A DNA stretch of 64,000 nucleotides from contig CAVQSR010000004.1 of the NCBI GenBank assembly GCA_963716055.1, forward strand, positions 97,888 to 161,887, read 5' to 3'. Position numbers and translations under genes: made by a program. This document shows positions 42,577 to 62,588 of the stretch, one piece after another. The notes beneath the pieces are model-generated. The model made no database searches. It had not been told where the DNA came from and saw only the letters and a list, made by a program, of their open reading frames with translations. The DNA is from an uncultured Gemmatimonadales bacterium (GTDB lineage: Bacteria > Gemmatimonadota > Gemmatimonadetes > Gemmatimonadales > GWC2-71-9). Each line of letters begins with the position of its first letter. The first letter of the stretch is position 1.

Positions 42577-43250
42577 TTCGAGGACCGAAAATCGACGGAA
42601 ATTGCAGCAGAATCACAACGAGACTCACAACTCGATTGAGCACAAGATACAAGTCGGCTCTCTGAGCAAATCAGGGGGTCTACTTTTTTGGACACGGAGC
42701 CAAGAAACCACTCACAACAAACTCACAACGCCGTTAGTGTCCAGACGATCAGGCGCGTTGCCGAACCCGCCTAGTCACAGTGGAGACCGGCGGAAAGACC
42801 CCACCGAACAACGCGCCCCAGTGGCCCACCTCGGTGTCCTCCCTTCGACTCCGCTCGACGTCGTCAAGCCGAGCGAGGGCAACGTCGAGCTTCTCAATGA
42901 AGCGATTCGCTCCTTCCTCGTCCCAACCTTCAGCTACGTTGACATCGGGCAGCGCGGGGTCTGTCACCGTGGGATCGTCGTCCCAACGCGGCCACCTACT
43001 TCGTCCCAGCGTCGCCTGCCCTGCAGCAGAACTCCCAGCGCGCATGCCTGCGCCGGTCAGGTGCCTGACTTCTCTCGCACAGCATGCGAGCCGGTGACAG
43101 AACAGCTGAGAATGCTCCTTGCCCGGCGTGGCAGCAGACTCCTTGAGAAGGAATTGGCGGAGGGATGAACCCCGCTTACACCGACGATCCGAAGGCGAGC
43201 CGGTCTACCACCCACAGATGGTACCTCACGGTTTGGACCGGGGGCCGCCC

Positions 43251-43374
43251 AGCTGGCGGGCGCCGCCAAGCAGGGTAGAGTTCCATTTGTGCGCCTGTTG
43301 AGTGGCGCGGACCGAGCGGGCGGTCGCAGCGCCAGCGGGCGCCGCGCCCGCAGCTCATGCGCATCACGTTAGGC
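43251..43374 (+). repeat. attC-like site 1 (left end truncated)
   Basis: A 124-nt near-identical copy of 45585-45708, ending GCAGCTCATGCGC..CGTTAGGC. Confidence 0.75.
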
Positions 43375-43437
43375 GGCCTTACACATCTCGACAATGCCGA
43401 TACTTCATCCGAATTCACGCCACATGAGGAGAAGGAC

Positions 43438-45567: not shown

Positions 45568-45708
45568 GCCTGACCGGCGCGTGAAGCTGGCGGGCGCGGC
45601 CAAGTAAGGTAGAGTTCCATTTGTGCGCCTGTTGAGTGGCGCCGACCGAGCGGGCGGTCGCAGCGCCAGCGGGCGCCGCGCCCGCAGCTCATGCGCGTTT
45701 CGTTAGGC
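45568..45708 (+). repeat. attC-like site 4 (most complete, 141 nt)
   Basis: GCCTGAC...TGAAGCTG at the left end and CAGCTCA...GTTAGGC at the right; arms GCTGGCGGGCGCGG / CCGCGCCCGCAGC are complementary with an extra base. Confidence 0.8.
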
Positions 45709-45730
45709 CGCCTGCAAGGACCAACCCCGC

Positions 45731-46465
45731 GTGATCAACAAACACGGCCTTTCACGTGACATCCCTGAGCCCATAAAGCGCCAAGTACGGACGGCCAGTG
45801 GTTTCGACTGTGTCGTTTGCGGTGCTAGTCTCGTGCAATACGAGCACGTCGACCCACCATTCGCAGAAGCCAAAGAGCATCGTTCCGATCAAATCACGCT
45901 CTTGTGCCATTCGTGCCACGGCCATGTGACGCGCGGCTACTGGTCAAAGGACAGAGTAAAGCTGGCGATGGCCGATCCCTATTGCCGCCGCGAGGGATTC
46001 TCCTGGGGGAACTTCGACTTCGGTGACCGTCACCCATCTGTGCGCTTCGGTGGCGTCCTTTTGAGCAATTGCGACATGCCCGTCGTAGTCCGTGGCCAAC
46101 CACTGTTTCTCATTCAAGGGCCAGAATGCCCGGGCGCACCATTCCGGCTCTCTGCGTTCTTCTCGGATGCCAGCGCCAATCCTCTGCTAACGGTTCATGA
46201 GAACGAGTGGCGCGTTGCTGCGGGGGTGTGGGACGTCGAGTTCACTGCGGGACGGATTCTAATTCGCGATGGGCCGGGCACGTATTCACTGGTTCTCGTC
46301 GCCGAGCCCCCCAATGGCATACGTATTGACCGGCTCCGAATGCATCACGGCGGCCTCCTGTTCGACGCTGACCCCGACACTCTCAGAATCGGTGATGGTG
46401 TCAACTGGAGCACGATGACTGGGTGCGTAGCGGACAATTGCAGGGTAGGCCTCATGCTTGGCTAG
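45731..46465 (+). CDS. HNH-type endonuclease domain protein (cassette-positioned)
   Basis: CVVCG...EHVDPPF...HRSDQITLLCHSCH Zn/HNH pattern; starts 22 nt after GTTAGGC. Confidence 0.8.
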   Translation: MINKHGLSRDIPEPIKRQVRTASGFDCVVCGASLVQYEHVDPPFAEAKEHRSDQITLLCHSCHGHVTRGYWSKDRVKLAMADPYCRREGFSWGNFDFGDRHPSVRFGGVLLSNCDMPVVVRGQPLFLIQGPECPGAPFRLSAFFSDASANPLLTVHENEWRVAAGVWDVEFTAGRILIRDGPGTYSLVLVAEPPNGIRIDRLRMHHGGLLFDADPDTLRIGDGVNWSTMTGCVADNCRVGLMLG

Positions 46466-47128
46466 TGCAGGCGGCGTAAGCTCAACTTTGACGTGCAACG
46501 TTCACCACGATAGCGCGTCTTTCGGCGGGGTTCATCGGGCATAGCATTCCTCCGGAGTGCGGTAGCCGAGGCGCTTGCGGGGGCGCTGGTTGAGCGTCCG
46601 CGCGAATCGCGACATTCACCTCGGTGTCGCGGGCTTAGTGGACACCACCGTCACGATCATCACTGAGATTCCCGATGCGAGGTGTAGCGGAGCCTGTCGG
46701 TCAGGGTTCGCGGCGTACTACGCCCGGGCTCGGCAGACGCTTGAGGAGCGCCTGGCAACCTGGACAGACGCCGCCCCAAGCTGGCCGTGGTTGCGGTCGA
46801 AGAACCCCACGCCCATGACCTCACCTCCCTGCTCCTCCGCCTAGAGGCCACCCCACAGCCTCTAACCGGAGCGGCCCGGACGATGGCGGAGGAGGCGCTG
46901 GTCGAGGCGGTGCGGACGTGCGAGTTGCCCGTGGTGTACGGGGTCGGGCTGGCGGGGCGGCCGTCGCGGAACTAGATGGCAGGCGGGCAGACGGTACCCG
47001 TCTACCACCCATGGATGGTACCAGAGTCTTGCACCGGAAGTGGGCCGGGGCCGACCACGAGAGTGGGTAAGCCAACGACCCAGTGGTCCGCCTCCTCAGT
47101 GCGGAGCTTTCAGCCCATGCGGATCACG

Positions 47129-48730
47129 CTACATAACAGCACCGCGCATCCGTTCTGCTTCGGCTTTCGTGATCGCCGGGAATCGCGTGGAACCCTCCGG
47201 CGGTTGGTGCCGGAGAATGAGTGCGAAGTCTGGCGATGCGGAGAATCGGCCGCCCGTCAGGTGGTCGTAGACTGACACCGGGTGCCGCGGATCAAACGCG
47301 AGCGACGGCGCGACCGTCGGATGTGGTCGCATCAGCTTCAATCCCATGCGACGGACCTGGGAATGGCTCAGGAACGCGTGACACATAAAGAGAAGCGCGT
47401 GCACTGTGTTGGGGTCTAACCGCTGCTGGAGGCGGAGCCACGAAGCGGTGCTGCGCGAATCGGACGCAGCGAAATGGTAACCCCCGCAATTACGAAACTC
47501 GCGCAAATCTGATGCGCGCGCCCGCCAGAGTGGCCACAAGTACGTTGAGAACAGCGACCTCGCTGTCAGCGGCAGGATTTGCCAGTTTGCTTCTGCAGCC
47601 CTAACTAGGTTGATGCGTCCGGGCTCAAAGAGGCGTACAACGCTCGCATACAATACCTGGAGGATGCGGGTCCGTGCCATTGCACGTGTGAGCGGCCCGG
47701 CCAGAAAGTGCCCGCGGCCGACTCCGATCTCCTCGCGGATCAACGCCGCGTAGAGTTGAGATAGAGCCGCGCTCCCGTTGGTGCCATGAGCCGCTTGCAG
47801 AATAACGGCTGCATCAGGGGCAGCGTGCCATTGGGTGTGTTCGCGGGCACGTCGCTGGTCGGCCCAGTCTGCGACTGCTCGAAGCGTCAGTACGCCAAGC
47901 GAACCTGGCCACCGCACCAGCCTGCCGACTATGTGCTGTACGGACGGGAAGACCGGCCAGAGCTCCGGAACATCGAGGGCCCAGCCAAACGCAGTGGACT
48001 TGTCGAACGTGTGGTACCACGCCCCCAGGTCAGCCGCATACGCGGGGTCGGCCGGTTCGAGAAGTGATGCAGCGCAGTAATGGGCGAGGACCACTAACTG
48101 CATTAGGTCTCGAAACTTCACGCGGCTGAGCGAATCTATGCCATGGTTGTGACCCTCGATCGTGGAGGGTGCATGGTGAGCCACGTTATTGCGGATGGAC
48201 AGGACCGATGGTTTTAGCCGGCGCCAGTTAGCGACCAACATAGCCCGCATTGCGGCGGCGTCCGAATCCGGCACCGGGCGCGAATCGAGAAATCGCAATA
48301 GATCGACGCCAGAGCGATCAAACAGCAGGCCAACATCGGCCGCTGCGTACGCACTGAGATGGCGCACGGCGCGCCCCAATTCCCCAAGGGTGATAAACGC
48401 GCACGTCCCGCCGAGTTTGACGTCGGCTTGGGCTAGAGCTCCGACGCACGAAATGGTGAGCGAGGCGCTTTGGATGCTCGCGAGTGCGGCGACGAGTTCG
48501 GAATCGCGCACACCATCCAGAGGGAACACTCGCTCGCTTGCTGCGGGCTCGGGAGCCAGATGCGACCACATCTCGCGATGGCGGCCAGTTTCGGGTGCAA
48601 TGCCATGCCGCACAAACATGTGCCTGAACTCTTCGAGAGTAGCGTCGTTAATGCGGTGTGGTTCGCGGCTCTGGTCCGGCTCGGTTGAAAGATCACCGTT
48701 TTTCGGAGCGCAGGGGCGTCTACCACCCAC
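47129..48730 (-). CDS. Hypothetical protein with two HEPN-like Rx4-6H motifs
   Basis: IRNNVAHH (48176-48193) and FRNCGGYH (47474-47494) in predicted helical halves; start uncertain. Confidence 0.55.
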   Translation of the reverse strand: MGGRRPCAPKNGDLSTEPDQSREPHRINDATLEEFRHMFVRHGIAPETGRHREMWSHLAPEPAASERVFPLDGVRDSELVAALASIQSASLTISCVGALAQADVKLGGTCAFITLGELGRAVRHLSAYAAADVGLLFDRSGVDLLRFLDSRPVPDSDAAAMRAMLVANWRRLKPSVLSIRNNVAHHAPSTIEGHNHGIDSLSRVKFRDLMQLVVLAHYCAASLLEPADPAYAADLGAWYHTFDKSTAFGWALDVPELWPVFPSVQHIVGRLVRWPGSLGVLTLRAVADWADQRRAREHTQWHAAPDAAVILQAAHGTNGSAALSQLYAALIREEIGVGRGHFLAGPLTRAMARTRILQVLYASVVRLFEPGRINLVRAAEANWQILPLTARSLFSTYLWPLWRARASDLREFRNCGGYHFAASDSRSTASWLRLQQRLDPNTVHALLFMCHAFLSHSQVRRMGLKLMRPHPTVAPSLAFDPRHPVSVYDHLTGGRFSASPDFALILRHQPPEGSTRFPAITKAEAERMRGAVM

Positions 48731-48978
48731 CGATGGTACCAGACCCGGATGGCCGGATCACCGGGTGCCGGCTCGGAGGGTGGCTCCTGTCACGGTCAGG
48801 TGGACCGATCTAACGTCAGAATCCGGGCCGCTTGGCGTCAGCATCGGACCGGCGGCATGCCCGACCGGGGCGGCTCCCAGCGCGACGGAAGCTCAACTTA
48901 GCGGAGAAACTAGCGGAGGGCGTAACGGGCGAGCATGTGCCCGCCCGTTAGGTGCTGCTGTCACAACGACTTCGTGAG

Positions 48979-49052
48979 TCGGGACGGCGGGATTTGAACC
49001 CGCGACCCCCTGAACCCCATTCAGGTGCGCTACCGGACTGCGCTACGTCCCG
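48979..49052 (-). tRNA. tRNA-Pro (GGG)
   Basis: CGGGACGTAGCGCAGTCCGGTAGCGCACCTGAATGGGGTTCAGGGGGTCGCGGGTTCAAATCCCGCCGTCCCGA folds into a cloverleaf with anticodon loop ATGGGGT; CCA is not encoded. Confidence 0.96.
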
Positions 49053-49431
49053 AGGGATTACAATCTACTACATCTTTACAACTTGCGCCCTTCGCGGTGG
49101 ATCGTCCGTCTTGCTACATGGAGTGAATCTCGTGGAGTAAGACTTTGGAGTAAAACGACACCGATTCCGCGGCGCCACCCCGCTCAGGGGCGACACCCCG
49201 ACCTTCCAAAACCGTTTGAATCGTCTCGCAGGTAAGGCCGAGGTGACGTGGCCCACCGGGTACAACGTCAACGCCCCCCTGACTGGTATTCAGGTGCGCC
49301 GCTTTTCTAGCGGTCTGACGAACACCGCACAGATCCGGCGTGTCTCCAGGACGGCTGCGCCCGGCGACGGTGTTCTAGGTGTTTCCCGCCGCGCACTGGA
49401 AGAAGATCCGAACGACCAATGGACTCGAGCG
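49014..49431. repeat. ~420-bp diverged direct repeat, copy 1 (tRNA 5' half + arm-like repeats + IS256 scar); copy 2 at 62096-62518
   Basis: Collinear similarity from ACCCCATTCAGG through TGGAGTAAGACT.TGGAGTAAAA to GGACTCGAGCG. Confidence 0.93.
49379..49431 (+). pseudogene. IS256-family transposase fragment
   Basis: FPAAHWKKIRTTNGLER; the second copy at ~62467-62545 continues LHDETKRR. Confidence 0.7.
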
Positions 49432-49690
49432 CCCGCTCGAGTTCCTTGATCTGCTGCAACGCCGCCCGGAACTCACTCGCCGGGACGACCTCCTCGTTCG
49501 CACTGACCGCCGCCGCGCTCCCGTTCGTACTCAGCCGCTGCCAGCGCCGCACCACCGACGGCGACACCGTCAGCTCCCGCGCGAGCTCCGCGAGCGTCAC
49601 CTCTCCGCGCACCACCCGCGCGATCTGTGCCTGCTTGAACTCGGCCGTGTCGATGCGCCGACCGTCCGACCCCCGCCGATGCGTTTCCAT
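49432..49690 (-). pseudogene. Truncated IS3/IS2-family OrfA transposase
   Basis: RRIDTAEFK...VTLAELARELTVSPSVVRRWQ...EEVVPASEFRAALQQIKELERAL; GGAGG SD; breaks at the IS256 fragment. Confidence 0.8.
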
Positions 49691-54770: not shown

Positions 54771-54839
54771 TATTGTCAACGGCGGCCAGGAATTGCGCAT
54801 TTTCGGCGGCGAAAAGTGCACACTCGCCGGGGGACGAGC

Positions 54840-61955: not shown

Positions 61956-62095
61956 TAGGACCGGCCTTGGAGTAAGAGTTGGAGTAAGAACGTGCTACTT
62001 CTGCGGCCTTTCCTCTACATCAGGTACTACACGAGGACGCCCTAACATCGCGTGAGTACAACATTTGGTAGTACCTGACGCTTGTTGCCGCGTGC

Positions 62096-62134
62096 ACCCC
62101 ATTCAGGTGCGCTACCGGACTGCGCTACGTCCCG
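62096..62134 (-). repeat. att junction: 5' half of tRNA-Pro only
   Basis: ACCCCATTCAGGTGCGCTACCGGACTGCGCTACGTCCCG is identical to 49014-49052; the 3' half is absent. Confidence 0.93.
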
Positions 62135-62588
62135 AGGGATCACAATCTACTACATCTACACGACTTACGCTTTTCGCAGCGCACCATCGGTCTTGCTACA
62201 TGGAGTGAATCTCGTGGAGTAAGACTGTGGAGTAAAAAGACACCGATTCCGCGTCGCCACCCGGCTCAGGGGCGACGCTCCGACTTCCCAAGATCGTGTG
62301 AATCATCTCGGAAGTATGTCCGAGGTGAGCTGGCCCACGGTTGACAACGTCAACGCCCCCCTGGCTGGTATTCAGGTGCGCCGTTTTTCTAACGGTCGTC
62401 TGACGAACAGCGTCCAGATCCCGGCGTGTCTCCAGGACGGTTTCGCCGCGGCGACGGTGTTCTAGTCGTTTCCCGCCGCGCACTGGAAGAAGATCCGAAC
62501 GACCAATGGACTCGAGCGGCTGCACGACGAGACCAAGCGGCGCATCCTTTCCCCGATCGGGCGAGTGAGGCCCCACGCCGGATACCCA

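Follow-up and report, generated by a model that had tools for sequence, protein, structure and literature searches.

Can one polypeptide, with no partner gene at hand, supply both halves of a HEPN ribonuclease (RNase) site? The question is raised by a gene in a 64,000-nucleotide (nt) stretch of DNA, here called the window, from an uncultured Gemmatimonadales bacterium (GWC2-71-9; GCA_963716055.1, contig CAVQSR010000004.1, positions 97,888-161,887, forward strand). An earlier note on this DNA had described a stand-alone protein of about 500 amino acids (aa) at 47129-48730, with two HEPN-like motifs, RNNVAH (Rx4H) and RNCGGYH (Rx5H), each preceded by a helical segment, and had proposed that it is a tandem-HEPN RNase. 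The open reading frame (ORF) is present on the minus strand, with 533 or 496 aa depending on the start, and both motifs can be read directly in the sequence at the places named. We refer to its product as the twin-domain protein.

The two halves of the protein are related to each other. An hhalign comparison of the N-terminal with the C-terminal half aligned 129 columns (probability 96.6%, E 6e-10) and put the motifs and the other shared positions in register, which on this sequence evidence identifies the protein as a tandem duplication within one chain. The motif regions read S-I-R-N-N-V-A-H-H-A-P (residues 178-188) and F-R-N-C-G-G-Y-H (residues 412-419), and both halves also share an L-F-[DE] string (D138 and E369) and a Trp 11 residues ahead of the motif Arg (W169 and W402). 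These two Trp and two acidic residues are invariant in all full-length members of the family described below, and the Trp-containing helices are the helical segments that the earlier note had placed before each motif. The note had also staked its proposal on conservation of the motifs in homologues, and every member keeps both, at identities down to about 20%, so they are not chance strings: R180, N182, H186 and P188 are invariant in motif 1, and R413 and H419 in motif 2. HEPN domains have a polar N, D or H directly after the conserved Arg (PMC3710099). All members have N, H or K here in the C domain; in the N domain the four closest members have N, and the second position after the Arg is an invariant N.

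AlphaFold2, given an 11-sequence alignment, returned an all-helical model with a pLDDT of 80.7 and a pTM of 0.83 (an input of two sequences reached a pLDDT of only 45). The model has four helices in the N domain (77-100, 115-135, 156-182 and 191-221), with an insert at 136-155 that holds a short helix (144-149), and the same arrangement in the C domain, with helices at 307-331, 345-366, 388-417 and 424-456 and an insert at 367-387 holding a short helix (375-381). The published HEPN fold is an all-alpha core of two helical hairpins, commonly with an insert between helices 2 and 3; the Rx4-6H motif spans the end of core helix 3 and the beginning of the loop that leads to helix 4, and helix 2 carries a second conserved acidic residue, often as part of Ex3[KR] (Anantharaman et al., 2013; PMC3710099). 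In the model, R180 and R413 fall in the last turn of helix 3, H185/H186 and H419 fall in the loop that follows, and helix 2 of each half ends at the invariant acidic residue, although in the string L-F-E369-x2-[RK] the spacing from acidic to basic residue is one less than in the published Ex3[KR]. The order and lengths of the predicted elements in both halves are compatible with the two-hairpin core; as modelled, the secondary-structure order of each half matches the published HEPN layout. Residues 1 to about 50 are weakly conserved and modelled with low confidence. The protein has an isoelectric point of 9.5 and no membrane segment. It is best explained as a basic, soluble protein of about 55-59 kDa, all-helical as modelled, in which one domain of about 150 residues, perhaps of HEPN type, was duplicated in tandem.

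The family to which the gene belongs is real, very rare and previously unannotated. A word-index search of 5.8 billion proteins matched only the protein itself and P0003, which is 51% identical to it and covers 96% of its sequence. An exhaustive profile search of 1.84 billion representatives gave 11 matches; these added two further close relatives (P0004 and P0005, about 43% identity) and six distant ones within P0006-P0012 (16-25% identity), and one match, a cadherin, was discarded as a false positive. No extra members came from a word-index search with the 11-sequence profile, no relatives from pattern scans of 185,000 GTDB species genomes, IMG/VR and JGI metagenomes, and a search of 300 further genomes from this order did not find the gene. 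About nine clusters make up the family, all metagenomic or "hypothetical"; each of the clusters looked up has a single member, and names, where given, are "hypothetical protein". The loci with homologues range from 35% to 65% in G+C content (GC). Since the family is sparse and scattered across unrelated genomes, it has evidently moved by horizontal transfer. Three short representatives were considered as single-domain relatives and rejected as broken genes: P0012 (N half) and P0008 (C half) belong to a single frame, split by one in-frame stop between the domains, in a Gemmatimonadales metagenome-assembled genome (GCA_035703525.1; L049 4001-5245 / L046), and P0010 (L048) is a frameshifted copy.

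The surroundings of family members are variable, mobile or defensive. P0004 is encoded directly behind a type I restriction-modification (R-M) operon and an OLD-like ATPase-Toprim protein, and the stop-broken Gemmatimonadales copy lies on a small element behind an integrase, an excisionase-like helix-turn-helix protein (HTH_17) and an XhoI-type R-M pair; the neighbours of P0003 are WYL regulators, a HEPN protein of PF05168 and other orphan genes. That relatives adjoin R-M systems fits an abortive-infection (Abi) or defence role. The gene stands alone, as had been claimed: no neighbour is common to the homologue loci examined, whether as a conserved partner or as an antitoxin, and no MNT nucleotidyltransferase gene lies nearby in the window or at any homologue locus. 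The claimed absence of CRISPR components also held up, with no CRISPR-like repeat-spacer array in the window, no cas gene named by Pfam scans of the larger ORFs between 38 and 64 kb, and none in the homologue loci. At the P0004 locus, the protein encoded between the type I R-M operon and P0004 (L002 6174-7844) is a 556-aa AAA_15/AAA_21 ATPase with a Toprim-like C-terminus, and so resembles OLD nucleases.

Is the duplicated domain a HEPN domain? Several results weigh against this reading. An hmmscan of every member gave no match at threshold in Pfam, NCBIfam, PADLOC or PHROGs; profile searches of the PDB, run with the whole protein and with each domain, gave only noise; and Foldseek found nothing better than E ~1 in PDB and BFVD. 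The 50 best PDB matches listed, out of 83 with E <= 10, were mostly helical membrane proteins and included no HEPN structure. Profile-profile comparison with two HEPN families gave no significant match either, the hhalign probabilities against Abi_2 and HepT both being below 5%, and the Abi_2 comparison was picked after the motif had been seen, so it is not independent evidence. Furthermore, the motif Arg in the N domain of the distant members is followed by Gly or Ser, not by a polar residue, and a stop or a frameshift disrupts at least two of the relatives.

Some of these negatives carry little weight. The Foldseek result is weak evidence because the query was the whole 533-residue all-helical model. 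As for hhalign, a control comparison of HepT with Abi_2, both accepted HEPN families, scored worse still (E 0.093, probability 0.6%), so the test has little power and its failure says little. The best match of the N domain to the Abi_2 profile, over the helix with the Trp and motif 1 (31 columns, E 0.0084, probability 4.8%), was in fact stronger than this control. (The Abi_2 profile was built from about 120 sequences; during the building of the reference profiles Abi_2 was found in one of 201 genomes, and HepT was plentiful.) The likeness can be seen by eye: an Abi_2 (AbiD/F) protein from the same phylum reads W-F-R-S-I-S-L-V-R-N-L-C-A-H-H, and the twin-domain protein reads W-R-R-L-K-P-S-V-L-S-I-R-N-N-V-A-H-H. 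It is a likeness at the level of the motif alone, with no Pfam match to the Abi_2 model (PF07751) even at E up to 10. Of ten motif-centred fragments searched against Pfam (five per motif), two gave matches, the motif-1 fragment of P0004 to HEPN_Swt1 over the motif region (E 0.15) and the other to an unrelated DUF (E 0.13). The weak positive signals from sequence all point to the Swt1/Abi2 clade of HEPN proteins. The tandem-HEPN proposal thus stands as regards homologous halves, motifs in register, a HEPN-like layout and an acidic residue, but not as regards a match to any HEPN profile or structure, and we lean slightly towards placing the protein in the HEPN superfamily.

What such a protein might do can be sketched. 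The two domains would pack as an intramolecular pseudo-dimer, in which the two Rx4-6H motifs would form one composite, metal-independent RNase site, by analogy with HEPN homodimers and Cas13. The enzyme would be kept inactive until infection or another stress and, once triggered, would cut cellular or phage RNA (tRNA, rRNA or mRNA), leading to a growth halt and abortive infection, and no partner gene would be required. We put the chances of this putative function, a single-chain pseudo-dimeric HEPN RNase that serves in defence or as a toxin, at about evens. A different account of the same features is that the duplicated helical protein is non-catalytic or differently catalytic, for example a sensor, a scaffold, a nucleotide-binding protein or a metal-dependent hydrolase, with the Arg, His and acidic residues used for ligand binding and the HEPN likeness a product of convergence. 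This we consider unlikely, though well worth keeping in view: no HEPN family gives a significant structural or profile match, short Rx4-6H strings are common, and many HEPN relatives are themselves non-catalytic binding domains (PMC3710099). However, the invariance of Arg, His and an acidic residue in both repeats, at the positions that define HEPN domains, would be hard to explain otherwise, and the weak database signals go to HEPN families only. It is far less credible that the ORF arose by chance in GC-rich DNA or is what remains of a dead gene there, an idea to which we give almost no credence. The genome is indeed GC-rich, with many spurious long ORFs, and the family is extremely rare. 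Nevertheless, the homology with P0003 runs over nearly the whole length of the frame, relatives are found in DNA of 35-65% GC, and GC by codon position is coding-like (0.68/0.51/0.67 for positions 1/2/3, versus 0.56/0.72/0.63 for the plus-strand ORF that overlaps it). The homologues, together with the confident structure model, refute this explanation in practice.

Even as a HEPN-type RNase, the protein could act other than against phages, as an addiction or stabilisation toxin that keeps a cassette or island in place, under the control of autoinhibition, proteolysis or an unrecognised small RNA or peptide antitoxin. The gene sits among decayed integron cassettes in the opposite orientation (described below), and toxin cassettes of chromosomal integrons are often found in opposite orientation. 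The broken copies are also what would be expected of a costly toxin, and HEPN toxins are common components of toxin-antitoxin systems (PMC3710099). On the other hand, no locus has a conserved neighbouring ORF that could be the antitoxin, and the R-M links favour defence, so we regard a role purely in addiction as improbable. The coordinates of the features discussed here and below are collected in the table.

Table. Features of the twin-domain gene and its surroundings, in window coordinates.
Feature	Position	Strand	Remarks
Twin-domain protein ORF	47129..48730	-	533 aa from GTG 48730; alternative ATG 48619 gives 496 aa; a 51%-identical homologue spans 96%
N-terminal HEPN-like domain	47996..48502	-	Residues 77-245; from AlphaFold secondary structure; homologous to the C-terminal domain
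D138 in invariant L-F-D	48317..48319	-	At the C-terminus of helix 2; candidate for the acidic HEPN residue in the N domain
Motif 1, R180-N-N-V-A-H-H186	48173..48193	-	Residues 180-186; family consensus R-x-N-x-x-H-H-x-P
C-terminal HEPN-like domain	47351..47812	-	Residues 307-460
E369 in invariant L-F-E-x-x-[RK]	47624..47626	-	End of helix 2, C domain
Motif 2, R413-N-C-G-G-Y-H419	47474..47494	-	Residues 413-419; family consensus R-[NHK]-x-x-[GA]-[FY]-H
Possible attC 3'-end remnant	47110..47130	+	18/21 bases match; R' box decayed to GCTACAT; abuts the stop codon
27-nt motif, copy 2	46999..47025	+	104 nt past the stop codon
27-nt motif, copy 3	48717..48743	+	Overlaps the GTG start; 98 nt upstream of the ATG start
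tRNA-Pro(GGG)	48978..49052	-	Twin-domain gene on its 3' side

The window has a GC of about 73% up to roughly 40 kb and of 57-64% beyond, and in this low-GC part the twin-domain gene is the sole long frame with coding-like base composition. Its start codon is ambiguous: the GTG lies inside copy 3 of a 27-nt motif, and the ATG is the database's call and corresponds in position to the start of the homologue P0004. The gene lies between tRNA-Pro, whose adjacency the earlier note had correctly recorded, and a group of small accessory genes. On the far side of the tRNA gene there is a STAND defence gene of the PNP-NACHT type, together with an IS3-type fragment and an IS21 element whose 54-nt inverted repeats are at 54773/56790; this low-GC stretch at tRNA-Pro is an island of mobile and defence DNA that also has stray integron cassettes. 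Two copies of a repeat (about 430-520 nt, 87-94% identity), at 49006-49440 and 62088-62527, include an IS3-type OrfA fragment along with the 5' two-thirds of the tRNA-Pro gene, and the roughly 13 kb between them contain the PNP-NACHT gene and the IS21 element. In the cassette just to the left of the twin-domain gene is a 244-aa ORF (45731-46465) with no Pfam match, whose Cys/His pattern (CVVCG...CHSCH) suggests an HNH or zinc-finger nuclease.

The earlier note had the gene bracketed by a 23-bp motif. The bracketing is real, the motif being 27 nt long (CGTCTACCACCCAYNGATGGTACCAGA), but it is tied to stray cassette clusters of the host rather than to the gene family. Three copies lie in the window, the first at 43202 and the other two at 46999 and 48717, where none would be expected by chance. 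The genome holds one more, for a total of four, at C1:1431381; this copy has 41 nt in common with window copy 3, tRNA-Gln is about 200 nt away from it, and two further off-array attC copies are found about 1 kb to the right of the motif (C1:1431114-1433298; L009, L045). No copy was found near any homologue, so the motif belongs to the host and not to the gene family, and none was found in the main integron array: copies go with both of the off-array attC clusters beside tRNA genes, but never with the main array. The motif is neither a piece of tRNA nor an Rfam RNA, and a sigma-54 site was rejected by eye, the spacing being wrong.

The integron in question is a large chromosomal one (C1:1076380-1136400), in which at least 55 same-strand copies of an attC family of about 127 nt come after an integrase gene (C1:1076380-1077318; TIGR02249, 436 bits). 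The 129-nt repeats of the window at 43251-43379 and 45585-45713 are off-array members of this family (77-84% identity), which puts two bona fide attC copies 1.4-3.9 kb from the twin-domain gene. BLAST found no attC flanking the gene itself. The possible remnant at its stop codon had a shuffle p of about 0.007 against one attC copy and was not significant against the other, and the twin-domain gene would run opposite to the neighbouring cassettes. A perfect GC-rich hairpin, GCGTAACGGGCG...GCCCGCCCGTTAGGT, lies at 48917-48950, 28 nt past the 3' end of tRNA-Pro, with ends like the R''/R' of integrons; it could be a minimal attC-like site or a tRNA terminator. A bolder reading, and one that we think quite improbable, is that the 1.7-kb unit between the 27-nt copies, with its reverse-oriented gene, is a discrete mobile module, that the 27-nt site is an undescribed recombination or landing site that seeds off-array cassette clusters by tRNA genes, and that the cargo is a Cas13-independent, single-chain HEPN immune RNase.

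If the twin-domain protein is indeed a single-chain HEPN RNase, an unannotated family would join this group of enzymes, with a catalytic pair derived from internal duplication instead of dimerisation, an architecture of which Cas13 is otherwise the best-known example. Such a compact effector, which would cut RNA without a partner and is found beside restriction systems and among integron cassettes, would be useful to catalogues of defence genes and to the question of how single-chain HEPN enzymes stay off, although the extreme rarity of the family tempers its impact.

Among known systems, AbiD/AbiF (Abi_2, PF07751) and the Swt1-like HEPN proteins (PF18731) form the Abi2/Swt1 clade of HEPN RNases (PMC3710099). 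The twin-domain protein has in common with Abi_2 the same R-N-x-x-A-H-H string after a Trp-containing helix, on which the best local profile alignment falls, and with the clade at large a single-gene, all-helical make-up and defence contexts. It differs in having two domains per chain instead of one, in a Trp-to-Arg spacing three residues longer than in Abi_2, and in the x5 spacing of its second motif (R-N-x-x-G-[FY]-H), and it matches neither model at threshold. HepT of the HepT/MntA system likewise carries an Rx4H motif after a Trp-containing helix, with the same metal-independent RNase chemistry predicted; however, HepT has about 120 aa and is homodimeric, only 9-13 columns align with it in hhalign, and the twin-domain loci have no MNT partner. 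With R-M-linked and single-gene HEPN defence proteins, such as ApeA, PrrC, RloC, AbiV and further HEPN families next to R-M operons, the protein shares a stand-alone gene, positions directly behind R-M systems and mobile islands, but it lacks a fused ATPase or other sensor domain and any family-level similarity to them. Cas13, finally, also carries a pair of HEPN-type Rx4-6H motifs on a single chain, which presumably make up one composite site. In contrast to Cas13, the twin-domain protein is encoded in a window without a CRISPR array or cas genes, has about 500 aa, no recognisable lobe for binding CRISPR RNA and no match in sequence or fold, and is built from two domains that are clear duplicates of each other.
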